Shown here in pieces: positions 24,091-61,936 of a stretch of DNA of 64,000 nt. The notes beneath the pieces are model-generated. The model ran no database searches. It was not told the origin of the DNA and was given only the letters and a program-made list of their open reading frames with translations. The stretch covers positions 641,734 through 705,733 of the forward strand of contig CP175956.1 of assembly GCA_046116545.1 (NCBI GenBank), given 5' to 3'. Both the position numbers and the translations under genes were made by a program. The first letter of the stretch is position 1; each line of letters opens with the position of its first letter. The stretch is from Candidatus Moraniibacteriota bacterium. GTDB taxonomy: Bacteria > Patescibacteriota > Minisyncoccia > Moranbacterales > GCA-2747515.

Positions 24091-24579
24091 ATGAAGAAAA
24101 AGCAGATATCCAATATTATTTATGTAATTGGAGCATTGCTTATTTTGGAATTATTTTTTGATTTCATATTGGGCGTGCAAGTATTTAATATAAAACTGGT
24201 AGATCCCGCAGCTCATGCATTGAACACGATTTTAAGGGGCTTTATTTTTTATTTAGTAGTTCCAATAATAATAGTGTGGAGAATTGCTGTTAATTGGAAG
24301 TATATACATCCATTTTTAATTTGGATACAAATCGGGATGGGTACTACTATTGGCATGGGTATGGCTGGGATAGCATTAGTAATAGGTATGTACGAAGGGA
24401 CTCCAAGCAAATTGAGAGCTATCGCAATATTTTCATTTTTTTTAGTGAATGCTATATTTCTTTTGTCTAATCTTTTATATAGACATGTGAAAAAAGATTA
24501 TGATAATATGCCATCATTCAAAGAGTTGAAAGACTGTCAGGATGCTGGAAAAATAGAGCAGTATCAAGTGAATAATTAA
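24091..24579 (+). CDS. hypothetical polytopic membrane protein
   Basis: 162 aa, 4 hydrophobic helices. Confidence 0.4.
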   Translation: MKKKQISNIIYVIGALLILELFFDFILGVQVFNIKLVDPAAHALNTILRGFIFYLVVPIIIVWRIAVNWKYIHPFLIWIQIGMGTTIGMGMAGIALVIGMYEGTPSKLRAIAIFSFFLVNAIFLLSNLLYRHVKKDYDNMPSFKELKDCQDAGKIEQYQVNN

Positions 24580-24599
24580 TTCAAGGAGAAACAAAAAAA

Positions 24600-24989
24600 A
24601 TGTTACCACCAAAAGAAGGTACTGAAACTCGTACTAAATGTCCTGTAATAGGATGTGAGTCTTTCCTGCTAACAGCTTATAAAACAAAGGTTTTCTACAA
24701 ACAACTTATTCTCAAATGTGATAATTGTGGACATGAAAAAGATGACGATGACTCATTACTACCATTGATTAGCAAGAGTTATGGTAAGTGTCCAATTGAA
24801 ACTGTTGATGTAGATAGATTAGCTGATGAACTCCGTTGCAAGATCTGTAACGATGAAACTACATCTTTTGTTTTCCCTGAAAAAATTGGAAAACAAGAAA
24901 GTATGCATAAATATACTTGTTGTGAGACAATTTCTTGTTATTTTGAATTAGTTAAAAGACTTGAAAATGGCAAATTTAACACAAAATAA
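24600..24989 (+). CDS. Cys-rich protein with multiple zinc-ribbon motifs
   Basis: CPVIGC...CDNCGH...CKIC... pattern. Confidence 0.4.
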   Translation: MLPPKEGTETRTKCPVIGCESFLLTAYKTKVFYKQLILKCDNCGHEKDDDDSLLPLISKSYGKCPIETVDVDRLADELRCKICNDETTSFVFPEKIGKQESMHKYTCCETISCYFELVKRLENGKFNTK

Positions 24990-25017
24990 ATTAAGTACAA
25001 AAGTAGGAGGAGTTATA

Positions 25018-25449
25018 ATGAGTTATACTTTCAAGCGGCTTTCTATCATGCTAGGTTCTATTTGTATCAGTTTGGGTATTGTTTTTTATTTGACGCATAG
25101 TGATGAACCACCCAGAATCATGGAGAGTGGCAAATACACATCTGAACGTTGGTTAAGCTGGTCAGAACATGCTTACTATACGCGAGATGCTGATGGAGAA
25201 ATGTGTGATATTTTGTTATTCAACTATACATTTACTCATAAGCTTTACCATTATTATGATGAAGATTGTGATGGCACTGCAGATTTTGTGGATGATACAA
25301 GACAAGTTACGTTAGAAGATGGCAGTGTAGCTTTGATTGATATAAAAGTGCCACATTATACAGCGGGGCGCACAATCGAGTTTCACAGGATGAACAATGC
25401 ATTTATATCCTTTCGCAGAGAATACGATGCGGTTTTAAAAGGTATATAA
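25018..25449 (+). CDS. membrane-anchored hypothetical protein
   Basis: Start at MSYTFK preceded by AGGAGG RBS; single N-terminal TM; terminator hairpin at 25460-25495. Confidence 0.4.
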   Translation: MSYTFKRLSIMLGSICISLGIVFYLTHSDEPPRIMESGKYTSERWLSWSEHAYYTRDADGEMCDILLFNYTFTHKLYHYYDEDCDGTADFVDDTRQVTLEDGSVALIDIKVPHYTAGRTIEFHRMNNAFISFRREYDAVLKGI

Positions 25450-25529
25450 AAGATAAGGATGAAATTATTATACAATAATTTCATCCTTTTTTATTTGCAT
25501 TTTATTTTTTAGTATGTATAATTGTATTT

Positions 25530-25750
25530 ACAAGTGTCTATGAAGCCGCAACACGGTGGAGATTGAGGAAGAAATCTGTGATTATTTACAGAAATTAGAA
25601 CCTCTCGGTCATTAGTGTCCGTTATCACTCATTAATAAAGTGAATAACTTGGGTTAAGTTATTAATTGCGGTGGTACCGCGGTTTTGTTTAAGAAATCGT
25701 CCGTTAGAAACAAATTAATTTTTGTTTTTGATGAACGATTTTTTTAATTT
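25530..25750 (+). promoter_or_regulatory. T-box riboswitch leader upstream of aspS
   Basis: AATTGCGGTGGTACCGCGG at 25664-25682 matches the T-box consensus AAUUAGGGUGGNACCGCG, including the UGGU bulge; downstream hairpin plus T-run (25694-25748) ends immediately before the aspS start; promoter TTTGCA-17-TATAAT at about 25494-25522. Confidence 0.65.
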
Positions 25751-25768
25751 ATAGTTAAATATAAAATT

Positions 25769-27547
25769 ATGCTTAGAACTCATACGTGTGGGCAATTGTC
25801 CAAAGAAGATGTTGGTAAAAAAGTGACGTTAACTGGTTGGGTAAACCGGCGGCGTGATCATGGTGGCGTGATATTTATTGATTTACGCGATAAATATGGA
25901 CTTACTCAAATTACATTTAATCCTGAACAAAATATTGATGTACATACTTTGGCAGATAAGTTGCGTAGTGAGTGGGTTATACAAGTCATTGGTGAAGTTA
26001 TTGCTCGTCCAAGTGATATGGTGAACAAGAAATTAGATACTGGTGAAATTGAAATAATTGCTAGTGAGCTTGTGATTTTGAACGAATCAGAGACTCCGCC
26101 ATTTGAAATTGCTGATGATGAAAAAACTGCTGAAGCAGGAGAAGGAATTAGATTGAAGTATCGTTACTTGGATTTACGAAGAAAAAAAATTCAAAAACTG
26201 CTTGCTGATAAGGATTTGTTTATACAAGACATGAGAAGTTTCTTCCAAAAAAGAGATTTTCAAGAAGTACAAACTCCAATTCTTGCTAATTCAAGTCCAG
26301 AAGGCGCTCGTGATTGGTTGATTCCATCAAGATTGTATCCAGGCAAATTTTATGCATTACCACAAGCACCACAACAATTTAAACAGCTTTTGATGATAGG
26401 TGGTGTAGATAAGTATTTTCAAATAGCTCCTTGTTTCCGTGATGAAGATCCTCGTATGGATAGACATTTTGGAGAATTTTATCAACTTGATATGGAGATG
26501 AGTTTTGTTGAACAAGAAGATATTTTTGAAATCTTAGAAGAGTTGTGGATTGAGTTAACTGCTGCTCATAGTAATAAAGAGATTATTACTAAAGATTTTC
26601 CAAAGATTCCTTGGAAAGAATCTATGAATAAATATGGTTCTGATAAGCCAGATTTGAGATTTGACTTGGAGATTAAGGATGTTTCAGAGATCGTTGAGAG
26701 TTCTGATTTTGGTGTATTTGCTGGAGCTGTTAAAGATGGAGGCGTTGTGCATGCGCTTAAAATTGATGGAGGTGCAGAATTTTCTAGGAAAAATATTGAT
26801 GACCTAACAGAATTAGCTAAAACAAAAGGAGCTAAAGGACTTGCTTATATTGTAATGAAAGAAGATGGCTCATTGAAATCTCCGATTGTTAAATTTTTGG
26901 GCGATGAAGTATGTGCACAAATTATAAAAACTGTTGATGCTAGTGCTGGTGATATAATATTCTTTGGAGCTGACAAGTGGCGAACTGTATGTGAAAGCTT
27001 GGGAGTAGTAAGAAATGAGTGTGCAACTATGTTAAATCTAAAAGATAATACAAAAGCTTCATATGCTTGGATTGTGGATTTCCCAATGTATGATTATTCT
27101 GAAATTGAAGAAGGTAAAATTGACTTTTCCCATAATCCATTTTCTATGCCACAAGGTGGAATGGAAGCACTTGAAAATGAAGATCCTTTGGATATAGTTG
27201 CGTATCAGTTTGATTTAGTTTTGAATGGATTTGAAATTTCTAGTGGAGCAATAAGAAATCATTCTCCGGAACTTATGTACAAGGCCTTTGAAATAGCTGG
27301 ATATACAAGAGATGATGTAGATAGAGAATTTGGACATATGGTACAAGCATTTAAGTATGGAGCTCCACCACATGGAGGAAGTGCACCTGGAATTGATAGG
27401 GCATTCATGGTTTTGAAAGATTGTAACTCTATTCGTGATATCTACGCATTTCCAAAAGATGGACAGGGACGAGACGCAATGCTCGATTCACCTTCAGAGG
27501 TATCTGACAAACAGTTAGAGGAGTTAAGTATCAAAATAGTTGATTAA
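25769..27547 (+). CDS. aspS: aspartyl-tRNA synthetase
   Basis: 592 aa; class II motifs (FRDE, GGSAPGIDR), OB-fold anticodon-binding N-terminus. Confidence 0.95.
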   Translation: MLRTHTCGQLSKEDVGKKVTLTGWVNRRRDHGGVIFIDLRDKYGLTQITFNPEQNIDVHTLADKLRSEWVIQVIGEVIARPSDMVNKKLDTGEIEIIASELVILNESETPPFEIADDEKTAEAGEGIRLKYRYLDLRRKKIQKLLADKDLFIQDMRSFFQKRDFQEVQTPILANSSPEGARDWLIPSRLYPGKFYALPQAPQQFKQLLMIGGVDKYFQIAPCFRDEDPRMDRHFGEFYQLDMEMSFVEQEDIFEILEELWIELTAAHSNKEIITKDFPKIPWKESMNKYGSDKPDLRFDLEIKDVSEIVESSDFGVFAGAVKDGGVVHALKIDGGAEFSRKNIDDLTELAKTKGAKGLAYIVMKEDGSLKSPIVKFLGDEVCAQIIKTVDASAGDIIFFGADKWRTVCESLGVVRNECATMLNLKDNTKASYAWIVDFPMYDYSEIEEGKIDFSHNPFSMPQGGMEALENEDPLDIVAYQFDLVLNGFEISSGAIRNHSPELMYKAFEIAGYTRDDVDREFGHMVQAFKYGAPPHGGSAPGIDRAFMVLKDCNSIRDIYAFPKDGQGRDAMLDSPSEVSDKQLEELSIKIVD

Positions 27548-38054: not shown

Positions 38055-38480
38055 ATGGAGCATTTGAAGAAAAAAAATTATATAAATAATATCATTTCAA
38101 TACCTTTTATTGTACTTTTGATTATACCTTTTGTGTTTTTGGATTTATGTGTAGAAATTTATCATAGAATTTGTTTTCCACTGTACGGAATTAAAATTGT
38201 AAATCGTTCAAAATATATTATATTAGATAGATATAAATTAGATTATTTAACTGGAGTTCAAAAAAGCAACTGCGCTTATTGTGAATACATCAATGGTCTT
38301 TTGAAATATGTAACAGAAATTGGAGCACGTACAGAAAAATATTGGTGTGCTATAAAACATAGTAAAAAAGATGGTGTTTACCCAGATCATCATAAAGATT
38401 TTTTAGAATATGGTGATGTTACTACATTTAGCAAAGAATATAAGCAAGAATTAACAAATTTAGAAAATAAACATGAATAA
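38055..38480 (+). CDS. hypothetical membrane protein
   Basis: 141 aa, one or two TM helices, Cys/His-containing C-terminal region. Confidence 0.4.
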   Translation: MEHLKKKNYINNIISIPFIVLLIIPFVFLDLCVEIYHRICFPLYGIKIVNRSKYIILDRYKLDYLTGVQKSNCAYCEYINGLLKYVTEIGARTEKYWCAIKHSKKDGVYPDHHKDFLEYGDVTTFSKEYKQELTNLENKHE

Positions 38481-39963
38481 TAAAGATGTAAGAGTACGAT
38501 TTGCACCATCACCTACAGGAGAATTGCATATTGGTGCACTAAAAACTGCACTAATGGATTATTTATTTGCTCGCAAAAATGGTGGTGTTTTTGTATTACG
38601 TATTGAAGACACTGATCGTAAACGTCTTGTGGAAGGTGCTGTGGGTCGTTTTATCGAGATGCTTAATTGGTCTGGCATTGAAATTGACGAAGGTGTAACT
38701 GTAGCTGATTCTGGCATTGAAACAGAAATTGGTGATGCGGGTCCATATACGCAATCTAAACGAAAAGAAATTTATAAAACATATATAAACCAACTTCTTG
38801 AAGAAGAAAAAGCATATCATTGTTTTTGTAGTTCGCAAAGGTTACAAGAAATGCGTGAGATGCAGCAAGCACAAAAACTACCTCCAAAATATGACAGAAA
38901 ATGTATGTATTTGTCAGCAAAAGAAGTAACAGAAAGAATTGAATTAGGTGATGAGTATGTGGTAAGGTTTAAAATTCCAGAAGGAAAAACAACTTTTACT
39001 GATGCAGTTTACGGCAAAATTGAGGTAGAGAACGAAACATTGGATGATCAAGTAATTATGAAATCAGATGGATTACCAACATATCATTTGGCAGTTGTTG
39101 TGGATGATTATCTTATGAAAATCTCTCATATTTTCAGAGGTGCAGAGTGGCTTCCAAGTACGCCAAAACATGTTTTGCTTTATCAAGCACTTGGATGGGA
39201 AGAGAATATGCCAGAATTCTGTCATATGACAAACATCCTCAATAAGGACAAAAAGAAACTTTCTAAACGGGAAGGCAGTGTTTCTGTAGCTGATTTCCGC
39301 AGAGAAGGTTATCCTAAAGAAGCGATTATAAACTTTATTGCATTACTTGGATGGAATCCAAAAACTGAACAAGAAATCTTCACAATGGACGAATTAATTG
39401 AACAATTTGATATTGCAAAAATGAACAAGTCTGGTGGTGTGTTTGACTTGGATAGACTTGCATGGATAAGCAAAGAACATATAAAAAAGATGGATGTTGA
39501 TTATATTTATGATAATTCCATAGACTTTTTACAAGAAAAAAACTATTTCAAAGATGCTACTGATGATAAACAATCGGAAGCATATCTTAAAAAACTTATA
39601 ACAGTCGAGCAAGATAGACTTGAGAAATTTACTCAAATTGGACAAGAAAACCAATTCTTTTTTACGGACATTGTAACTAATAAAGAGTTGTTAAAATGGA
39701 AAGATAATTCTTTTGAAGACACAAAGGAAGTTTTAGAAAGAGCACAAGAAGTTTTAACTAAGATTGATGATAGTGATTGGACTCGTGAAAATTTAGAAAA
39801 ATTACTTATGGATGCAGCAGGGGATAAACGTGGAGATTTTCTTTGGCCACTTCGCAGTGCGTTAACAGGAGAAAAAAGATCTCCAAGTCCATTTGATTGC
39901 GCTTGGATATTTGGTAAGGATGAAACAATTAAACGAATTGAAATAGCATTGAAATTATTGTAA
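38473..39963 (+). CDS. gltX: glutamyl-tRNA synthetase
   Basis: RFAPSPTGELHIGALKTAL (HIGH motif) and KLSKR (KMSKS-like). Confidence 0.9.
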   Translation: MNNKDVRVRFAPSPTGELHIGALKTALMDYLFARKNGGVFVLRIEDTDRKRLVEGAVGRFIEMLNWSGIEIDEGVTVADSGIETEIGDAGPYTQSKRKEIYKTYINQLLEEEKAYHCFCSSQRLQEMREMQQAQKLPPKYDRKCMYLSAKEVTERIELGDEYVVRFKIPEGKTTFTDAVYGKIEVENETLDDQVIMKSDGLPTYHLAVVVDDYLMKISHIFRGAEWLPSTPKHVLLYQALGWEENMPEFCHMTNILNKDKKKLSKREGSVSVADFRREGYPKEAIINFIALLGWNPKTEQEIFTMDELIEQFDIAKMNKSGGVFDLDRLAWISKEHIKKMDVDYIYDNSIDFLQEKNYFKDATDDKQSEAYLKKLITVEQDRLEKFTQIGQENQFFFTDIVTNKELLKWKDNSFEDTKEVLERAQEVLTKIDDSDWTRENLEKLLMDAAGDKRGDFLWPLRSALTGEKRSPSPFDCAWIFGKDETIKRIEIALKLL

Positions 39964-39997: not shown

Positions 39998-40393
39998 ATG
40001 ATTAAAACAAAATGTATTTTAACAAAACCATGTGTTACTGATGGTACACGTATTTCTGTTATGTCTAGGCATACATTAGTTGATGGTGTCACACCGGACA
40101 TCCGTATTACACAGACATTATATGATATTCATTGTAAGAATCTTGCACCACCAGATATTTTAGTAGGTGCCTTTTATAGAGGTGAGCTATCATTTAAACA
40201 ATATAGCTACGCATATAGAATGTATTTACAGCAAAAAGATTACCGAAAAACTCTGCGTAGTATTGCTAAATATGGACTGGTAGAAGATATTACATTTTTA
40301 TGTATTGAAGACTTACCAGAATATTGTCATCGATTGATTTTGTTGCAGGAATGTTTATGGCAGGAACCTGCTTTACATTACATAATTTCTTGA
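39998..40393 (+). CDS. DUF488 family protein
   Basis: 131 aa; ...DITFLCIEDLPEYCHRLILLQECL C-terminal motif characteristic of DUF488. Confidence 0.5.
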   Translation: MIKTKCILTKPCVTDGTRISVMSRHTLVDGVTPDIRITQTLYDIHCKNLAPPDILVGAFYRGELSFKQYSYAYRMYLQQKDYRKTLRSIAKYGLVEDITFLCIEDLPEYCHRLILLQECLWQEPALHYIIS

Positions 40394-40395
40394 AA

Positions 40396-40432
40396 CTAAA
40401 CTGAGGTTTTTTTAATATAAAATCCTCAGTTT
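40396..40432 (+). terminator. rho-independent terminator
   Basis: aaactgaggttttttt...aaaatcctcagttttt hairpin. Confidence 0.7.
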
Positions 40433-40457
40433 TTATTTGATAAAAAATTACTTCGTT

Positions 40458-40684
40458 TGACAAGGGTATTGCATTATGTTATAAAGTAATTAATATAATT
40501 TTTATAAAGAAGTTATGAAATTTAAAGATTTCAAAAATTATTCAAATAGTAATCTTGGATGTGCGACAGATGTCGTAAAGCCTACTTTTTCTATGCGCTC
40601 AAATATTATTGAGCAAATGGATACTTGTAGCCAAGGTTGTTTTTGTCTAACTTACTTCTATAGAAAATACTTTCTTATTTCATA
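40458..40684 (+). CDS. consensus-promoter-driven small ORF (56 aa, Cys-containing peptide)
   Basis: TTGACA(40458)-17-TATAAA promoter; ORF 40514-40684 MKFKDFKNYSNSNLGCATDVV...CSQGCFCLTYFYRKYFLIS; terminator hairpin at 40717-40745. Confidence 0.35.
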
Positions 40685-40872
40685 GTTCAAAAAGTTAACT
40701 TAATATCAAAAACTATCTCGGCTAGATTACAAGCCGATTTTTTTGTCTTGCAATCTATTGAAAAATATTAGTTTTTTGAAAATTTAATAGAAAAGGAGGA
40801 AATTATATCATGATACGTAGATAGTATTAGATGTCCTTATATTTATTTTAATTTTCCAATGGAGGAAAAAAC

Positions 40873-41412
40873 ATGTTAAAACGTCATAAGATTAATTTAC
40901 GAGCAGTGTCCGTAGAAGATGCCATGGTATTTATTCTTTGGATGAATGATCCTGAAGTAACTAAGTTTCTCGTGCGCTCAAAACCGATAACACTAACAAT
41001 GGAAAAAGAATGGATTGAGAGTGTTGGAAAGTCTGATTCTGAAATAGTTTTTACTATTGAGGCCATTGATGGTAGAAAACCAGTTGTAATTGGTAGCATC
41101 GGACTTCATAAAATCGATTGGCTTAACCGTAGTGCAACATTTGGTATTGTTATTGGTGATAAAAAATACTGGAGCAATGGATATGGCACGGAGGCTGCCG
41201 AGTTACTTATTAAATATGGGTTTAATTCATTGAATTTACATAGAATTGAATCAGCTGCTTATGCATTTAACAAGCGAAGTGTCGCATTACATAAAAAACT
41301 TGGATTTATGGAGGAGGGAATTAGTAGAAAAGCTATTTATAAAAATGGCAAGTATCATGATGTCGCTAATTTTGGCTTTTTACGTAAAGAATATAAAAAG
41401 CTGAACAAATAA
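40873..41412 (+). CDS. GNAT family N-acetyltransferase (RimJ/RimL-like)
   Basis: GNAT motif A region ...WSNGYGTEAAELLIKYGF...; strong RBS GGAGGAAAAAAC. Confidence 0.8.
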   Translation: MLKRHKINLRAVSVEDAMVFILWMNDPEVTKFLVRSKPITLTMEKEWIESVGKSDSEIVFTIEAIDGRKPVVIGSIGLHKIDWLNRSATFGIVIGDKKYWSNGYGTEAAELLIKYGFNSLNLHRIESAAYAFNKRSVALHKKLGFMEEGISRKAIYKNGKYHDVANFGFLRKEYKKLNK

Positions 41413-41528
41413 TTTGTAAGGACAGACCTGTGTGTCTGTCCTTTAAATTTGTATAAACAAAAAGGCGGGTATAAAACCCGCCACTACCATGTTTGTCATC
41501 CTGAACTTAATTTAGTAAATCAGATGTT

Positions 41529-41882
41529 TTAGTTAACCTTCTTGAAGTTTACATTATACATTGGTTCGTATAAGTTATCATATGCATCACGAACCTCAAC
41601 TGTCTCACCATCCATCATAGTTGATAGGGAAATATCAGACATCATTTCTTGTAATGATTTTGATTCTCCTTTAAGTTCATCAAGTTTTTCCCAACGCATT
41701 CCTAGATCTCTTTGTGCGCTTAATTCATGTTGTTTTTTTGTTTCTCTCATAACATTCATCTTTTCAATCAATTCTTGGTATTCAGCATCTTGAGCTAAAA
41801 CATCTTTATATTCTTTGCGAATTTCTTTCATTTCTTTTTTAGTGATTTGAAATTCACTAAAGACTTCTTGTACATCTTTCAT
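41529..41882 (-). CDS. hypothetical coiled-coil protein
   Basis: 117 aa, charged helical. Confidence 0.4.
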   Translation of the reverse strand: MKDVQEVFSEFQITKKEMKEIRKEYKDVLAQDAEYQELIEKMNVMRETKKQHELSAQRDLGMRWEKLDELKGESKSLQEMMSDISLSTMMDGETVEVRDAYDNLYEPMYNVNFKKVN

Positions 41883-43275
41883 ATGTTTTTTTGTTTAATT
41901 ATTTTACGAACACAAAATCTATTATACCATACAATATCACTAAATAATAAACTTCAATTATAAAAACATTAAAGCGTGGGGAAGAGGTCTATAAGATAGT
42001 AGGTGTTGAGTATGTCCTAAATATAAAATAGTTAAAAACATAACTTTGAATCATTTTAGAATACAATGGATACTAGTCTAATACTATAGATATTAAATAT
42101 ATGTGGTATTTTTTTATCAAAATTAAAAGTGTAATAGATAAATATTTTTATGTCGCACAATATTTTAGTATATAAAGTTCATTGGGGAAGAGTTGTATTT
42201 GTAAGTATGCCTTTTATCAATCATTTTTCACTACTAATGCAGTATAAATTTATACTCATATATCATAGGATTCTAAACCATTATTAGTTAACTTTACATA
42301 AACTATAAATCATTTTTATTTTTAAAAAATATTTTATTATTAAGTTTGAATAAAAAATTATAATAAATATTAGCTAAATTAAAATCTAATTCAAAAAGAA
42401 ATGAATATGTATGTACATATGTATTATTTTATAATGTATCTATTTAGTGCTTAATTTGATAATTAGTAGCACTAAATACGCAAGTGACAGATTGACTGGT
42501 GTGTTTGTAAGAAAAAAGTAATACCTATATACCACTAATTTTTTACAAAACGTCTAAGGAGATTTCATGTATACGTTTTGAATAAAAAAGTAATACGTAA
42601 GTACCACTGAAATTGTATATTTTGCAGAGTTAAAAACTAACTAAGTTGTATAAACTCAAATTAACTATTTATAAAACTTCCATAGCATATCTGGGATTAA
42701 AAATTTTATAAATAATTGGATAAAAAACATTTTTAAAATACAAAATAATTTATAAATTATTTAAAATTTAATTTATTAAAATATAGATTTTAAGCTAAAA
42801 TTCATTATTTATCATAAGTAAGATAGTATATAGATCTCCAAAAACTAGAAATATTATATATTTTTGTTTAAAAGGTACTTTTTTGGCTTAAATAAAGGGT
42901 TTTTAATGATGGTATGTCGCATAAGATACATTGTGCGACATAGAATATATCATGAATTCATACCATTTAACCTAGTTCCTTGAATAAATTAGCTTGCTAC
43001 TGATACCTCTAAAAATCGCATTTGACTAACTTTTTAACTTAAAACCATCCATTATACTATTATATACTGGATGGTTTATGTATTTTTATTCTGATTGTTT
43101 ATGCAATCTCTGGGACATTCTTTTTGCTAATCCCATAATTGCAGGACTTAAGGTTCTAATCGAACCATCCGGCATCAGTACTTCAGGTTTTTTAATGCCT
43201 ACAAGTTTACGATTTAATAATCTGCGATGACCTAAGTTTTTTTCGTTATGAAATGCATAACCTCTCCCCTACTTT
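41883..43275. other. 1.4-kb ORF-free AT-rich region with internal direct and inverted repeats
   Basis: No ORF of 60 aa or more on any frame. Direct repeat AAAAAGTAATACSTAWRTACCACT at 42510 and 42587. TGGGGAAGAGKT repeat at 41979 and 42184. ATGTCGCAYAA motif at 42150, 42914 and 42928. Perfect 10-bp inverted repeat at 43043-43079. Confidence 0.6.
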
Positions 43276-43698
43276 TTACAGCATCATTTTAAATACATTA
43301 GTGTCATTTTTTTCGAAACCTTTTTGTTGGTAAAGTTGTATAGCTGCTTTCCTGGCACTATTACTAGTTAATTCTAAGCGACATAACTTCAACTTTTTAG
43401 CTTCTGATATCAAATAATCAATCATTGCACTACCTATCCCCTGTCGCAGATAAGATTTGTCAACAATAACGTCTTCAATAGTACCGACACTGCCTTGACT
43501 GGGAACCAATCGCACAGTAAGTGCACAAAAAGATATGATTTTACCAGAATCTTTTACTACAAAACAAATACAATGATCATCATAAACACATTGCCTCAGA
43601 TAATCTTTGGTAACGCAGTTACGTGTTAATTGCAAAAATAGTTTTTGAACATCTAAAAGGTTATCTTTTACAGCTAACCTTTTAACAATAATATCCAT
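43276..43698 (-). CDS. GNAT family N-acetyltransferase
   Basis: RQGIGSAMIDYLISEAKKLKL...ELTSNSARKAAIQLYQQKGF motif A/B pattern. Confidence 0.75.
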   Translation of the reverse strand: MDIIVKRLAVKDNLLDVQKLFLQLTRNCVTKDYLRQCVYDDHCICFVVKDSGKIISFCALTVRLVPSQGSVGTIEDVIVDKSYLRQGIGSAMIDYLISEAKKLKLCRLELTSNSARKAAIQLYQQKGFEKNDTNVFKMML

Positions 43699-43715
43699 AA
43701 TTCTCCTCCTTAACT

Positions 43716-44417
43716 CTAGTCATTTTTTATAAGAGTTCCTTCAAATTTTCTATTGTATAAGTACGCATCTAAATTTTCCAAATTTGCACCGTTTAATGTA
43801 ACTGCCTCCAAATTCTCTCGTTTGGCATATTCGGCTGCAATAGGATCAAATGGAGCATTCATACCAGGGCTCCATTCAGCTGTATTGATTTCTTGAAATC
43901 TTTCCCAAGACATCTCCTCTATTTTTATAGCATCAGGAAACTTTGCAGGATCCTTATCATAAACATAGTCTATATTTGATAAATTTACAATCTTTTTGAT
44001 ATTTAGGTATCTTGCAAGTAGCACAGTATCATAATCAGTAGAAAAACCAGGACGCCATCCAGCAGCAATCATAATAGGCTGTTCACATTGGAAAAAATCT
44101 TCTAAATCATGTGGATTTGTATTTATACGAGGATGCGCATAGTCACGAAATATTGTACGTATTAAATGTGCATTTAAACGAGTAGCATGTATACCTAACC
44201 AGTCTTTATCTTCATCATTTACATCCGGAGAGATTGCCTCGGCTGCATTTGCATATTGTCGTGCTGTTTTACCTCCACCAGTTATAAAAACAAATCTTTT
44301 ATCATTTTCTTTTACATGTTTTATTATTAATGCACGAAACTCCTTTAAAAAATCTACATTAATATCTTTTGGAGCTATTAAGGATCCACCTAGATTGATA
44401 ATACATGTTTTTTCCAT
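43716..44417 (-). CDS. amino-acid-kinase family protein, UMP kinase-like (archaeal type)
   Basis: IINLGGSLI...FITGGGKTARQY...DWLGIHATRLNAHLI matches the PyrH/AAK motif pattern. Confidence 0.6.
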   Translation of the reverse strand: MEKTCIINLGGSLIAPKDINVDFLKEFRALIIKHVKENDKRFVFITGGGKTARQYANAAEAISPDVNDEDKDWLGIHATRLNAHLIRTIFRDYAHPRINTNPHDLEDFFQCEQPIMIAAGWRPGFSTDYDTVLLARYLNIKKIVNLSNIDYVYDKDPAKFPDAIKIEEMSWERFQEINTAEWSPGMNAPFDPIAAEYAKRENLEAVTLNGANLENLDAYLYNRKFEGTLIKND

Positions 44418-58423: not shown

Positions 58424-60883
58424 TTACTTTCTCACCTCAACATCAATTTCTTTTTCAAGAGAACCTATTATGTTTTCTATTTTCTCATCAACATTTTTGG
58501 ATTTCAAAGTTTTCTCATTATCTCCAAAAATTATATGAAATGCCATGGAACGCTCACCAGTTTCTTTATTTGTGTATAGATCAAACAAATCAACATCTTT
58601 TACGAGTTCACCTCCAGCATCATATATGATTCTCTCTACATCACCAACACAAACTCTATCCCCTACCATCATAGATAAATCTCTAGATACAAAAGGGAAC
58701 TTGGCAAGTGGTTCAAAGAAGTTTTCTGATTTCGTTTCAGCTAGCATCACATCAACATTCAACTCACAAACAACTGCACGAGTTTTCTTAAGTCCAAAAT
58801 ATTTACTTGCTTTTTTATCAGTCTCACCCATCCAACCTATCACTTTACCACTTTGCATTTTTATCATCGCTCGTCTTGAAGGATGCAAATTTGGCAAATG
58901 TTCTTTATTTTCATCAAACTCACTATCAAAATAATAATCACCGATATTAATTCTATCAAATAATGTTTCCAACATACCCTTCATTTCAAAGAATTGTGTT
59001 CCGTCATTATCTTTAGAAGCAACGACAGCACCTAAAACAAGTTTTTCATCAGGCAACACAGCGTCAACTGGATCATAAATACGACCAATTTCAAATATTT
59101 GCACTCTATCAAAATAACTAAAGTTCTTTTTTGTAAAATTTAACAAATTTGGCATAAGTGACCTACGCATGATAGCTTGCTCTGGATTCATAGGATTCAT
59201 AAGCGTTATATGATTTTCATCATTCAGTCCTACAGCACGAGCATCATCAAATCCATAAAATGAATAGCTCTTCACTTCATCAAATCCTCCATATACAAAA
59301 ACATCTTTCAATGTTCTTTCAAAGAATCTCTGCTCATTTCTAACAGGTGTCTGTACAGATTCTTTAAGTGGTTTTGATTCTATTTTATCATAACCATACA
59401 TTCTTCCAATTTCTTCTATCAAGTCCTCCTGAGTTTGCAAATCAATCCTTATTGTTGGAATTGTACATATCAATACTTCCCCCTCTCCCTCTGGGAGAGG
59501 GTTGGGGTGAGGGCCATCACATTCAACATTAAGTCTTTCTAAAATACTTTTCATCTCATCAGCTGCTATATCAACACCCAACATTTTAATGACTTTTTTT
59601 GTGTCTAAATTCACACTCCATTTCTCAACTGGCTCAGGATATACATCTGTTACACCTGCCACTGTACCACCTGCCAATTCAATAAATAATTCCACTGCCT
59701 TAGTAGCTGCGATACTTGCTAAATTTGGATCAATGTTTCGTTCAAACCTATAAGCCGCATCTGTTTGCAAGTTATACTTACGTTGAGTTAATCGTACAGA
59801 ACTAGAATCAAAGGAAGCAGCTTCAAGTATGATGTCTTTTGTATCACATGAAATTGCACTACTAAGTCCACCCATAACACCCGCTAACGCAATAGCATCG
59901 CCTTCTCCTGTATTTTCGCCATCAGTTATAACTATATCAGCACTATTTAATTCCACTTCCTGATTATCTAATAACATTATCTTTTCTCCATCACGAGCCT
60001 GTCGTACTTCTATTTTTTTAATATTAGCTGCATCGAAAGCATGTAATGGTTGACCGGTCTCAAGCATTACATAATTTGTAATATCAACAATATTGTTTTT
60101 GGGAGTAATGTCAGAAGACTGCAATCGAGCTTTCATCCAATCAGGCGACTCTTTGATTTCAATATCATCAATCTTTACACCAATATATCTATTACATTTA
60201 GGAGTATCTATAGACACATTCAAAACCCCCTCTCCCTCTGGGAGAGGGCTGGGGTGAGGGCTTTGTTCAGCAGTGTCTTCAAGTGCTTGCATTTCATTAG
60301 CAACACCTGTATAACTCAAACAATCATGTCCACGATTTGGTAAGATATCCAAATCAATTATACTGTCATTCAACTTTACGTACTTAGCAAATTCTTCTCC
60401 AACAGGAGCATCAATAGGCAAAACTATAATGCCATCATGCTCATTACCAATTCCCAATTCATCCTCCGCACAAATCATCCCATTTGATTCTACTCCACGA
60501 ATCTCATTTTTTTTAATTTCAAAAACTTCTGGATCATGTGTAGGAGTTTTTATTATTGGTCGTATTCTTGCACCCACAAGTGCAACAGGAACCTTCTGTC
60601 CAACTTCCAAATTTGGCGCACCACAAACAATCTGTAAACTTCCTCTCCCTTTGGGAGAGGATTGAGGTGAGGGGTCCACATTCACAGTAGCAACGCTAAG
60701 CCTATCAGCATCAGGATGTTTTTCCTTTGTCATCACCTCACCAATAACAACATTATCCAAACCATCAGATAAATCCTCAACACCTTCAACCTCAAAACTA
60801 TGAGCCATAAATAACTCAGCCATTTCATCAACATTCTTTTTTGTCCCACTCAATTCCTTGAGCCAATTGTAACTAAATTTCAT
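58424..60883 (-). CDS. pheT: phenylalanyl-tRNA synthetase beta subunit carrying three in-frame GC-rich palindromic insertions
   Basis: 819 aa; tRNA-binding, B3/B4, B5 and FDX-ACB domains recognisable; insertions at 59478-59515, 60225-60262 and 60641-60678. Confidence 0.9.
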   Translation of the reverse strand: MKFSYNWLKELSGTKKNVDEMAELFMAHSFEVEGVEDLSDGLDNVVIGEVMTKEKHPDADRLSVATVNVDPSPQSSPKGRGSLQIVCGAPNLEVGQKVPVALVGARIRPIIKTPTHDPEVFEIKKNEIRGVESNGMICAEDELGIGNEHDGIIVLPIDAPVGEEFAKYVKLNDSIIDLDILPNRGHDCLSYTGVANEMQALEDTAEQSPHPSPLPEGEGVLNVSIDTPKCNRYIGVKIDDIEIKESPDWMKARLQSSDITPKNNIVDITNYVMLETGQPLHAFDAANIKKIEVRQARDGEKIMLLDNQEVELNSADIVITDGENTGEGDAIALAGVMGGLSSAISCDTKDIILEAASFDSSSVRLTQRKYNLQTDAAYRFERNIDPNLASIAATKAVELFIELAGGTVAGVTDVYPEPVEKWSVNLDTKKVIKMLGVDIAADEMKSILERLNVECDGPHPNPLPEGEGEVLICTIPTIRIDLQTQEDLIEEIGRMYGYDKIESKPLKESVQTPVRNEQRFFERTLKDVFVYGGFDEVKSYSFYGFDDARAVGLNDENHITLMNPMNPEQAIMRRSLMPNLLNFTKKNFSYFDRVQIFEIGRIYDPVDAVLPDEKLVLGAVVASKDNDGTQFFEMKGMLETLFDRINIGDYYFDSEFDENKEHLPNLHPSRRAMIKMQSGKVIGWMGETDKKASKYFGLKKTRAVVCELNVDVMLAETKSENFFEPLAKFPFVSRDLSMMVGDRVCVGDVERIIYDAGGELVKDVDLFDLYTNKETGERSMAFHIIFGDNEKTLKSKNVDEKIENIIGSLEKEIDVEVRK
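59478..59515. repeat. GC-rich palindromic element copy (CCCCCTCTCCCTCTGGGAGAGGGTTGGGGTGAGGGCC) inside pheT
   Basis: Encodes ...GPHPNPLPEGEGEVL... in frame. Confidence 0.8.
60225..60262. repeat. GC-rich palindromic element copy inside pheT
   Basis: AAAACCCCCTCTCCCTCTGGGAGAGGGCTGGGGTGAGGGC; encodes ...SPHPSPLPEGEGVL... Confidence 0.8.
60641..60678. repeat. GC-rich palindromic element copy (diverged) inside pheT
   Basis: CTTCCTCTCCCTTTGGGAGAGGATTGAGGTGAGGGGTCC; encodes ...DPSPQSSPKGRGSLQ... Confidence 0.7.
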
Positions 60884-60901
60884 ATATATTTTTAAAAAAG
60901 A

Positions 60902-61936
60902 TTAAAACTGTTTCGTAAACCGTACATCACCTCCATGAAACAATCGTATATCATTAATCTTGTATTTCATCATTGCAAGTCGCTCCAATCCAAATCCCCA
61001 AGCAAATCCTTGATATTCACCTCTATCATAACCAGCTGCTTCAAATACATTTTGATGTACCATTCCTGCTCCACCCACTTCTATCCATCCTGTGCGTGAA
61101 CATGTAGAGCATCCAGCACCTCCACAGTTTGTACATGATATATCAAATTCAAATCCTGGTTCTACAAATGGGAAATAACTTGGTCGCAGTCTTGCCTTAA
61201 TTTCTTGTCCAAAAAACTCTGAGAAAAATGTCTCTGCAATATATAGAAAATTTGATACACTCACATCTTCACCAACAACCAATGCTTCAAATTGATGAAA
61301 AGTGTGTTCATGTGACGCGTCTGTTGCCTCATTACGGAAAACTCTCCCAGGTACAATCATTCTAAAGGGTGGTTTATGTTTTTCCATGTACCTTACCTGT
61401 ACACCTGAAGTCTGAGTACGCATTACTGTACCAGTTCCTTTCTTACGACCTTCCTCACGTGAAATCCAAAAAGTATCCTGCATATCTCGTCCAGGATGAT
61501 CATCTGGCATATTTATAGCATCAAAGTTATATGACTCACTCTCCAAGTCAGGTCCGTCAGCAATATCAAATCCCATTGATGTAAAAATATTTTCAATATC
61601 TCTTTGTACAATACTCAAAGGATGTAAATGCCCATGAGCATGTTTCGATCCAGGAGCAGATACATCTATCCACTCTTTTTTCTCATCAATAACACTCTCT
61701 AGTGTCATTTTTTTGTCATCTATCAAATGTTGTATTTCTTTTTTAGTTTCATTTGCCAATGGTCCGATTTCCTTTTTTTCTTCTACAGATAAGTCTTTCA
61801 ATCCTTTTAAAATCTCGTTAAAAGCACTCTTCTTACCTAGATAAGAAATTCTAATATCCTCGATAGCATCTAAAGTATCAGCACTTGAAATCTGCTCCAC
61901 AGCATTGTCTTTAATTTGTTGAATTTGTTCTTTCAT
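60902..61936 (-). CDS. pheS: phenylalanyl-tRNA synthetase alpha subunit
   Basis: Class II motifs (FRNE, GFAWGFGLERL), HPxRDMQD region. Confidence 0.95.
   Translation of the reverse strand: MKEQIQQIKDNAVEQISSADTLDAIEDIRISYLGKKSAFNEILKGLKDLSVEEKKEIGPLANETKKEIQHLIDDKKMTLESVIDEKKEWIDVSAPGSKHAHGHLHPLSIVQRDIENIFTSMGFDIADGPDLESESYNFDAINMPDDHPGRDMQDTFWISREEGRKKGTGTVMRTQTSGVQVRYMEKHKPPFRMIVPGRVFRNEATDASHEHTFHQFEALVVGEDVSVSNFLYIAETFFSEFFGQEIKARLRPSYFPFVEPGFEFDISCTNCGGAGCSTCSRTGWIEVGGAGMVHQNVFEAAGYDRGEYQGFAWGFGLERLAMMKYKINDIRLFHGGDVRFTKQF

Follow-up and report, generated by a model that had tools for sequence, protein, structure and literature searches.

An aspS leader with T-box features, an ultrashort Stem I and an intrinsic terminator in a Moraniibacteriota genome

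The leader of aspS in the 64-kb window (the whole stretch of Candidatus Moraniibacteriota DNA analysed here, G+C ~32%) is almost certainly a genuine T-box riboswitch. The best reading of its parts, which we consider likely, is a transcription-attenuating T-box in which a minimal decoding module would sense uncharged tRNA-Asn(GUU). The preliminary description of this region had proposed a T-box leader that regulates aspS by antitermination, and a full-length alignment to the Rfam model RF00230 supports that proposal. A K-turn, an S-turn, an F-box with a IIA/B pseudoknot, Stem III, an antiterminator with a UGGN bulge and an overlapping terminator are all present, and covariation in eleven orthologous leaders is strong.

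Results

Gene context and promoter

The leader lies in a 320-nt intergenic region (window 25490-25770) between a small ORF and an ORF of 592 aa on the plus strand. The larger ORF had been called aspS on first inspection, and its matches to NF001750 (799.5 bits) and TIGR00459 (663 bits) agree with that call, identifying a bacterial-type aspartyl-tRNA synthetase (AspRS). Downstream of the small ORF stands a terminator (25455-25488) made of a perfect 15-bp hairpin and a U-run, and it abuts the -35 element of the aspS promoter. The promoter had also been noted before, and the orthologous leaders described below have it at the same place.

25494..25522, plus strand: promoter TTTGCA-17-TATAAT, sigma-70-type (10/12 consensus matches)
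25769..27547, plus strand: regulated gene aspS (NF001750, TIGR00459; Shine-Dalgarno survey)

The -10 element ends 13 nt upstream of the base of Stem I, and the predicted transcript start (~25529) lies about 6-7 nt before the K-turn. Both the -35/-10 spacing and the distance to Stem I are constant in at least nine orthologous leaders. Because the promoter is placed so close to the K-turn, a longer Stem I cannot hide upstream, and because the terminator of the upstream gene abuts the -35 element there is no space for one. The 25 nt that precede aspS contain no Shine-Dalgarno (SD) motif; of the 32 window genes surveyed, only about 4 have one.

Detection of the leader

At the gathering score, which is 93 bits for RF00230, Rfam gave no matches in the whole window. 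In E-value mode RF00230 aligned end to end (model positions 1-219) over 25531-25707 with 56.8 bits (E = 6e-12 when a 401-nt region was searched, 1e-9 when the window was searched as a whole), and this was the sole Rfam match below E 0.01 in the window. The model matched the K-turn, Stem II, the F-box region, Stem III and the antiterminator of the leader; the score is low because 74 distal Stem I positions of the model are replaced by 3 nt. A sub-threshold score had been named beforehand as a result that would speak against a T-box. The score obtained is indeed below threshold (56.8 against 93 bits), yet the missing distal Stem I accounts fully for the shortfall, and the low score therefore does not refute the assignment.

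The leaders of relatives scored 32-49 bits against RF00230, none of six further loci reaching the threshold, and E-values across the window and these leaders ranged from 6e-12 to 6e-4. The whole leader folded better than 200 of 200 dinucleotide shuffles (z = -4.55). Other T-boxes were sought upstream of pheST, gltX, hisS and ileS; none was found in the window by Rfam at E < 0.01, and none in the relatives by the lineage-specific covariance model R1 (see below) over 475 kb.

Comparison with related loci

Eleven further aspS leaders of the same design were obtained from contigs encoding related AspRS and from a metagenome scan. All eleven come from MAGs or metagenome contigs, and with the leader of the window they make up a comparison set of 12. 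L161, L162 and L164 belong to assemblies GCA_029940505.1, GCA_054028275.1 and GCA_002747515.1, respectively, and L168 to the 1.18-Mb JGI contig Ga0645781_00011. Eight belong to the AspRS clade of the window (75-89% identity) and three (L001, L082 and L087) come from more distant Patescibacteria; the short-Stem-I design is kept where AspRS is 64-89% identical to that of the window. The nearest relatives of the AspRS are Patescibacterial (Moraniibacteriota, Parcubacteria, Paceibacterota). Relatives in the protein database share 75-89% identity, one of them being named Candidatus Moraniibacteriota, and the best matches in species-representative genomes share 63-68% identity and are all Patescibacteria/CPR MAGs.

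The gene order dsbA-like, leader, aspS, rpmF, nusB, rnc, purC is common to the window and most of the eight-leader clade. L166 is in a different gene neighbourhood, and L162 and L175 differ in the downstream genes. Most other Patescibacterial aspS loci have no T-box (L002-L006, L010, L081, L083-L086, L088-L094, L169, L170, L176 and L177); in L170, which is a contig from Falkowbacteria, aspS is embedded in a pheST-aspS-ileS operon.

In a MAFFT alignment of seven leaders with a hand-drawn structure, 93.9% of cells were paired, compared to 33-57% in slid controls in which the 3' partners were moved by 1-3 columns, and 14 pairs were compensatory. None of 500 shuffles was as good on four of five measures, and 27 of 500 were as good on further pair types. 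The covariance model R1, built from this alignment, recovered all 12 leaders (56-170 bits) and made no other credible match in 475 kb. The 12-leader alignment, which was fitted to R1 and therefore leans towards the model, was 96.1% paired (controls, 32-50%); 20 of its 31 pairs were compensatory, and none of 500 shuffles reached any of the five measures. RNAalifold, run on the 12-leader alignment without a supplied structure, returned the same helices plus a distal helix in Stem II (27 of 36 pairs compensatory).

Stem I and the specifier

Stem I has the sequence GUC-[UAU]-GAAGCCG-CAACA-CGGUGGA-GAU and is built from a K-turn, a helix of 4 bp and an apical loop of 5 nt.

25536..25563, plus strand: ultrashort Stem I, 28 nt (RF00230 alignment and covariation of both helices)
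25536-38 / 25561-63, plus strand: Stem I C-helix GUC/GAU (covariation)
25539-41, plus strand: K-turn bulge UAU (matches RF00230 K-turn positions)
25542-44 / 25558-60, plus strand: K-turn tandem G.A / A.G (matches RF00230 K-turn positions)
25545-48 / 25554-57, plus strand: Stem I upper helix GCCG/CGGU (covariation)
25549-53, plus strand: apical loop CAACA (12-leader comparison)
25550-52, plus strand: proposed specifier codon AAC, Asn (homologous triplet in 12 leaders)
25553, plus strand: purine 3' of the specifier, A25553 (invariant in 12 leaders)

The K-turn (GA motif) is present at the base of Stem I and the helices that flank it covary. The Stem I helices are 94-100% paired in the comparison set, with compensatory changes from GUC/GAY to GCC/GGY and from GCCG/CGGU to GCUG/CAGY. 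Three pairs of the 4-bp upper helix covary, and the G-C pair that closes the loop is kept in 12 of 12 leaders. In the RF00230 alignment, Stem I lacks the internal specifier loop as well as the AG bulge and distal loop that make up the double T-loop elbow platform.

We are highly confident that the specifier is the AAC in the apical loop of this ultrashort stem. The homologous triplet is AAC (Asn) in seven of the 12 leaders and GAC (Asp) in the other five, and the next base is A in all 12, followed by the closing C. The bases 5' of the triplet drift (C, CA, CU, UU, AA or A), and the loop is 5 nt long in the window leader compared to 6 nt in 10 of the 12. The loops are as follows.

C-AAC-A: window leader
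CA-AAC-A: L161, L162, L174, L082
AA-AAC-A: L168
A-AAC-A: L001
CU-GAC-A: L163, L166, L175, L087
UU-GAC-A: L164

The preliminary description had suggested that the specifier might be an Asn codon. The amino acid stands and the triplet does not, since the codon is AAC at 25550-25552 and not the one near 25597. Folding Stem I, which had been proposed as the way to locate the specifier, gave a drastically shortened stem with an AAC-A apical loop that had not been recognised. Both of the original candidates were set aside. GAU (25580-82) falls in the distal loop of Stem II, which is not conserved and varies in the comparative alignment. AAC at 25599-25601 lies within the conserved Stem II S-turn strand UAGAAC, for which some relatives have UAGAUC or UAGAAU.

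AAC and GAC leaders interleave on a neighbour-joining tree of AspRS, where L168 (AAC) is sister to L164 (GAC), so that the specifier must have switched at least twice.

Stem II to Stem III

The elements between Stem I and the antiterminator were assigned as follows.

25565..25604, plus strand: Stem II (RF00230 alignment, 12-leader conservation)
25565-68 / 25601-04, plus strand: Stem II base GAGG/CCUC (covariation)
25569-75, plus strand: Stem II S-turn strand AAGAAAU (RF00230 alignment)
25576-91, plus strand: Stem II distal hairpin CUGU-GAUUAUUU-ACAG (distal helix predicted independently by RNAalifold)
25592-25600, plus strand: Stem II S-turn strand AAAUUAGAA, with conserved UAGA at 25596-99 (RF00230 alignment)
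25606..25629, plus strand: Stem IIA, F-box and IIB pseudoknot (RF00230 alignment)
25606-08 / 25619-21, plus strand: Stem IIA CGG/CCG (93% paired)
25614-17 / 25626-29, plus strand: pseudoknot Stem IIB, AGUG with CACU (covariation by inspection)
25619-24, plus strand: F-box CCGUUA (RF00230 alignment)
25637..25665, plus strand: discriminator part 1, comprising purine string, Stem III and flanking AA (covariation)
25637-42, plus strand: purine string AAAGUG (conserved)
25643-50 / 25656-63, plus strand: Stem III AAUAACUU/AAGUUAUU (8/8 pairs compensatory)
25664-65, plus strand: flanking AA 3' of Stem III (invariant)

The base helix of Stem II is 96% paired with compensatory changes in three of its four pairs, and GGAAGAA...UAGA is conserved in 12 of 12 leaders; the AGA of the S-turn stands at 25597-99 in the window. 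Stem IIB covaries by inspection, the AGUG/CACU of the window being replaced in relatives by AACG/CGUU, UUUUGC/GCAAAA, UUUGC/GCAAA or ACUUGC/GCAAGU. The MAFFT column count puts it at only 64% paired, since the loop is misaligned there by shifts of register. Two relatives (L162 and L174) lack Stem IIA/B. In Stem III, where compensatory changes affect every pair, 93% of cells are paired; the stem, the purine string before it and the AA after it fit the RRRNG-Stem III-AA motif quoted in PMC7778990.

A different helix, GTTATCACT/AGTGAATAAC (25621-29 / 25639-48), had been described earlier as Stem III-like. Although the window sequence allows it to pair, this helix is not conserved. On the left it is made up of the F-box and the 3' half of pseudoknot Stem IIB, on the right of the purine string AAAGUG and the 5' half of the true Stem III. 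It was dropped for the covarying helix at 25643-50 / 25656-63.

Expression platform

The T-box core had been recognised in the preliminary description as AATTGCGGTGGTACCGCGG at 25664-25682, and we confirmed it there with its UGGU bulge (25672-25675). The T-box sequence AGGGUGGNACCGCG is represented by UGCGGUGGUACCGCG at 25667-25681, with a 7-nt bulge between helices A1 and A2. The T-box core is self-complementary, and a U-rich stretch (25683-25690) comes after it.

25668..25704, plus strand: antiterminator (RF00230 alignment and covariation)
25668-71 / 25701-04, plus strand: antiterminator helix A1 GCGG/CCGU (A1+A2 98% paired, 12 leaders)
25672-78, plus strand: 7-nt T-box bulge UGGUACC, in which UGGU is the predicted partner of the tRNA 3' NCCA (RF00230 alignment)
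25679-83 / 25696-25700, plus strand: antiterminator helix A2 GCGGU/AUCGU (A1+A2 98% paired, 12 leaders)
25691..25744, plus strand: intrinsic terminator hairpin, -22.2 kcal/mol (5' arm contains AUCGUCCG)
25739-25745, plus strand: U7 tract after the terminator hairpin (sequence)

The segment AUCGUCCG comprises the 3' strands of A2 and A1 and lies within the 5' arm of the terminator, so that antiterminator and terminator are mutually exclusive. A hairpin plus U-run terminator had already been reported before the ATG; we found it at 25691-25745, and the distance from the end of the U7 tract to the aspS ATG (25769) is 23 nt rather than the 20 nt first given. When the 3' regions were folded, a hairpin plus U5-8 tract overlapping the antiterminator was present in 11 of 11 complete leaders, the folds having energies of -24 to -37 kcal/mol. 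The antiterminator adds about -4.4 kcal/mol beyond Stem III alone. Since this is weak relative to the -22.2 kcal/mol of the terminator, termination would be the default and read-through would need an external stabiliser, the tRNA, as is usual for T-boxes.

In four relatives, palindromic, MITE-like insertions of 90-125 nt lie between the terminator and the ATG, so that the hairpin stands 110-150 nt before the ATG and is uncoupled from the start codon. No copy of these insertions was found in the window. Sequestration of an SD sequence was rejected as the read-out: there is no SD at aspS, a U-run follows the hairpin and the gap to the ATG is 23-150 nt. We think it very probable from this arrangement that the leader acts by transcription termination. 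A genome that rarely uses SD sequences leaves little for a sequestrator to act on, which might plausibly explain why the decoding module is combined with a terminator.

tRNA specificity

Most likely, and here our confidence is moderate, the leader would respond to uncharged tRNA-Asn because the AspRS is non-discriminating. AAC and GAC are the codons of the two tRNAs that a non-discriminating AspRS charges, and the specifier may toggle between them in relatives, as both tRNAs would report on one enzyme. It is from tRNA-Asn as the predicted ligand that we infer a non-discriminating AspRS. All AspRS of the window's clade have His at position 31 (RRRDHGG), reportedly a signature of the non-discriminating type (Bernard et al. 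2006).

The variable base of the UGGN bulge is either C or U within one specifier class (UGGU in the window and L161, UGGC in L174 and L162), suggesting that G73 would be the only compatible discriminator base. G73 is the usual discriminator base of bacterial tRNA-Asn and tRNA-Asp. Genes for these two tRNAs were found neither in the window nor in 30 scanned loci. There was no asnS or gatCAB among the suitably sized ORFs of the window, and no Pfam matches suggesting gatCAB or asnS were recorded among the called genes of the fetched contigs.

Discussion

In the mechanism that we propose, RNA polymerase would initiate at about 25529 and the nascent Stem I K-turn hairpin (28 nt) would display AAC and the following purine in its apical loop, adjoined by Stem II with its S-turn and by the IIA/B pseudoknot. 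The GUU anticodon of tRNA-Asn would pair with AAC, and Stem II, docked on the codon-anticodon duplex, would replace the missing elbow-binding platform. If the tRNA is uncharged, its 3' NCCA would bind the UGGU bulge and stabilise the weak antiterminator (25668-25704), giving read-through into aspS in vivo. An aminoacylated tRNA (Asp or Asn) could not cap the antiterminator; the -22 kcal/mol terminator (25691-25745) would then form and transcription would stop. A non-discriminating AspRS would charge both tRNA-Asp and tRNA-Asn, and GatCAB would complete Asn-tRNA-Asn by an indirect route that is well established (PMC2330236).

We consider it very unlikely that the T-box senses tRNA-Asp, be it by a different triplet, for example GAU at 25580-82, or because the specifier is something other than the AAC loop. 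The regulated gene is indeed aspS, GAC (Asp) occupies the homologous loop position in 5 of 12 leaders and a GAU exists in the distal loop of Stem II; however, that loop is conserved in neither sequence nor length, and its GAU has no conserved purine 3' of it and is absent from relatives. No codon-like element other than AAC/GAC has a fixed position beside an invariant A, and an A at the first position of the codon would mismatch C36 of tRNA-Asp. Still less do we favour a translational T-box like the ultrashort class of Actinobacterial ileS, in which the 3' hairpin would be a sequestrator of the ribosome-binding site. Although the K-turn hairpin with its apical specifier, Stem II and IIA/B match the translational class (PMC7583486), U5-8 comes directly after the hairpin in all 11 leaders, and the distance from hairpin to ATG is 23 nt in the window and 110-150 nt in the four relatives with insertions. 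Moreover, aspS has no upstream SD, in a window where about 4 of 32 genes have one, and hairpin plus U-run terminators are used elsewhere in the same genome, for example at 25455-25488.

We give least credence to the view that the leader is a decaying canonical T-box, in which the distal part of Stem I has been deleted and tRNA sensing lost, leaving a leaky constitutive attenuator or an inert element. Decay would fit the Rfam score under threshold, the loss of a platform considered essential for transcriptional T-boxes and the patchy distribution among Patescibacteria. It sits poorly with a short design that is kept across AspRS only 64-89% identical to that of the window, with compensatory changes in every helix, including the 4-bp helix of Stem I, and with a specifier, purine, S-turn and T-box bulge that either do not vary or vary in a meaningful way. 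In addition, a strong terminator without regulation would be deleterious before an essential single-copy aaRS gene.

Read as a transcription-attenuating T-box, the aspS leader invites comparison with the ultrashort-Stem-I T-boxes of Actinobacterial ileS, known from Mycobacterium tuberculosis, M. smegmatis and Nocardia farcinica and represented by structures 6UFG and 6UFM (PMC7583486). In these RNAs the short Stem I carries the specifier in its apical loop, and the K-turn and Stem II are required (PMC7583486). In M. tuberculosis ileS, C14 belongs to the apical loop and A19 is the purine that follows the specifier (PMC10651847), the A-G-A trinucleotide of the Stem II S-turn guides the specifier (PMC10651847, PMC7583486) and Stem IIA/B was reported to be essential (PMC10651847). 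The aspS leaders resemble this class in the K-turn at the base of a very short Stem I, the apical-loop specifier followed by a purine, the absence of the elbow-binding double T-loop platform, the AGA of the Stem II S-turn, the IIA/B pseudoknot with its F-box and a standard discriminator with a UGGN bulge. Numbered from the base of Stem I, leaders with 6-nt loops have C14, the codon at 16-18 and A19, as in M. tuberculosis ileS. The aspS leaders differ from the Actinobacterial class in their output, which is a hairpin plus U-run intrinsic terminator and not an SD sequestrator, in their Patescibacterial host and in their gene and specifier (aspS with Asn/Asp, not ileS with AUC); the window loop has 5 nt, and two relatives have no Stem IIA/B.

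The leader also resembles canonical RF00230 T-boxes of the Bacillus subtilis tyrS and glyQS type. Like these, it is a promoter-proximal aaRS leader with a K-turn, a T-box sequence, alternative antiterminator and terminator structures, a Stem III with flanking purines and a preference for a specifier ending in C. Unlike these, it lacks ~74 nt of Stem I, which in the canonical type hold the AG bulge, the distal loop and an internal specifier loop that has an S-turn. The decoding module is thus of the Actinobacterial kind and the expression platform of the Firmicute kind.

An Asn-responsive T-box upstream of a non-discriminating aspS-gatCAB-asnB operon in Clostridium acetobutylicum was reportedly described by Saad et al. 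in JBC in 2012 (cited in PMC4206432); that element is said to have a long canonical Stem I and belongs to the Firmicutes. It shares with the present leader an AspRS gene under a T-box that reads tRNA-Asn, tied to the indirect Asn-tRNA pathway, whereas the leader described here has an ultrashort Stem I and Asn/Asp switching among orthologues. Sherwood, Grundy and Henkin are said to have called 'many', not all, Actinobacterial leaders translational in 2015. Short-Stem-I transcriptional examples may already be on record, and this is the main risk to novelty.

The class II model of TBDB was searched only in Actinobacteria and in class I matches with a truncated Stem I (PMC7778990). A search of a library of full-text papers found no report of a T-box in the Candidate Phyla Radiation/Patescibacteria. 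We see about an even chance that these leaders form a previously undescribed Patescibacterial T-box class, in which a platform-less module with an apical specifier is joined to a kinetically controlled terminator in genomes that are largely without SD sequences, and in which the specifier toggles between Asn and Asp since the enzyme charges both tRNAs.

Transcriptional T-boxes have been held to need the elbow-binding platform for fast tRNA capture, while translational ones may dispense with it (PMC7583486). The aspS leader, as we read it, runs counter to the working rule by which a co-transcriptional T-box needs that platform; if this is true, the tRNA-elbow platform would be no general requirement for co-transcriptional tRNA sensing. 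A family with a conserved, covarying ultrashort Stem I and a terminator makes the kinetic argument for the platform testable on natural RNA, and the repeated AAC/GAC exchanges amount to natural specifier-swap experiments. With its ~215 nt the element ranks among the smallest T-box switches that are complete, and Stem IIA/B is missing as well from two of its relatives.

The leaders would extend the T-box family into the CPR, below curated detection thresholds; with members at 32-57 bits against a gathering score of 93, curated Rfam-based pipelines will not report the class. An Asn specifier on aspS would be indirect evidence for the ND-AspRS/GatCAB route in an uncultured lineage, and the reduced genomes of Patescibacteria would appear to keep at least one tRNA-charging feedback loop.

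Leaders lacking Stem IIA/B

The entire Stem IIA/B pseudoknot, together with the F-box, was missing from two of the orthologous aspS leaders, both from loci of the window's own AspRS clade.

L162:9758-9929, leader without Stem IIA/B and F-box (AspRS 84% identical to that of the window)
L174:1-157, leader without Stem IIA/B and F-box (AspRS 88% identical to that of the window)

Both leaders retain the ultrashort Stem I, the Stem II S-turn, Stem III, the antiterminator and the terminator. Stem IIA/B has been reported to be essential for tRNA binding by T-boxes with a short Stem I (Mtb ileS, PMC10651847) and, because it is absent here, the L162 and L174 leaders would be still more minimal switches.

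In the window, the T-box core, AAUUGCGGU-GGU-ACCGCGGUU, is self-complementary and runs into UUUGUUU; the consensus scan picked out this stretch (25664-25690) as resembling a terminator. Of the 12 leaders (window plus 11 relatives), 9 have GGUUUU after the core. It is pure speculation that the core and the U-rich stretch might form a hairpin-dependent pause that buys the platform-less RNA time for tRNA capture.

Insertions in the terminator-aspS spacer

In four relatives, the last two listed being more distant Patescibacteria, palindromic insertions of 90-125 nt separate the U-run of the T-box terminator from the start codon of aspS; none was found in the window or in the remaining leaders.

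L161:9886-9995, palindromic insertion
L174:215-340, palindromic insertion
L082:1400-1495, palindromic insertion
L087:1405-1495, palindromic insertion

With terminal inverted repeats of the form (A)ATGTCAT...ATGACA(AT), these insertions look like MITE-type mobile repeats that have landed repeatedly in this spacer. The L087 insertion gave a weak, sub-threshold match to Rfam WsnRNA46 (42.7 bits vs 65.3).

Genomic surroundings

The stretch from the dsbA-like gene to the aspS promoter holds three small ORFs of 162, 129 and 162 aa (window 24091-25449). None of them matched an NCBIfam model, and in L162-L164 and L168, which are syntenic relatives, they are missing or differ. At window 40000-44000, where G+C reaches its minimum for the window (0.289), the GC skew reverses, from about +0.2 ahead of 40 kb to about -0.2 past 44 kb, and the dominant coding strand turns from plus to minus; such a convergence of leading strands suggests a replication terminus region.

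In a survey of the 25 nt upstream of 32 start codons in the window, GGAG, GAGG, AGGA or AAGG preceded only about 4, and the leaders were A/U-rich, which suggests that initiation in this organism is largely Shine-Dalgarno-independent.

T-boxes on other genes

Two other aminoacyl-tRNA synthetase loci of the window had no T-box detectable with Rfam (E < 0.01) or the lineage-specific model; the riboswitch is confined to aspS within the sampled DNA.

38473-39963, gltX, no T-box detected
58424-61936, pheS-pheT, no T-box detected

Two further loci (AspRS about 50% identical) have a T-box ahead of aspS whose Stem I is of the canonical long type; these T-boxes score 70-72 bits, still under the gathering score of 93.

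L131:1015-1193, T-box with canonical long Stem I, without Stem II or IIA/B, 5' of aspS
L138:946-1123, T-box with canonical long Stem I, without Stem II or IIA/B, 5' of aspS

The occurrence of an Asn codon on aspS may therefore not be limited to Patescibacteria, since the 3' strands of the specifier loops in these two T-boxes read GA-AAC-A and GA-AAC-G.
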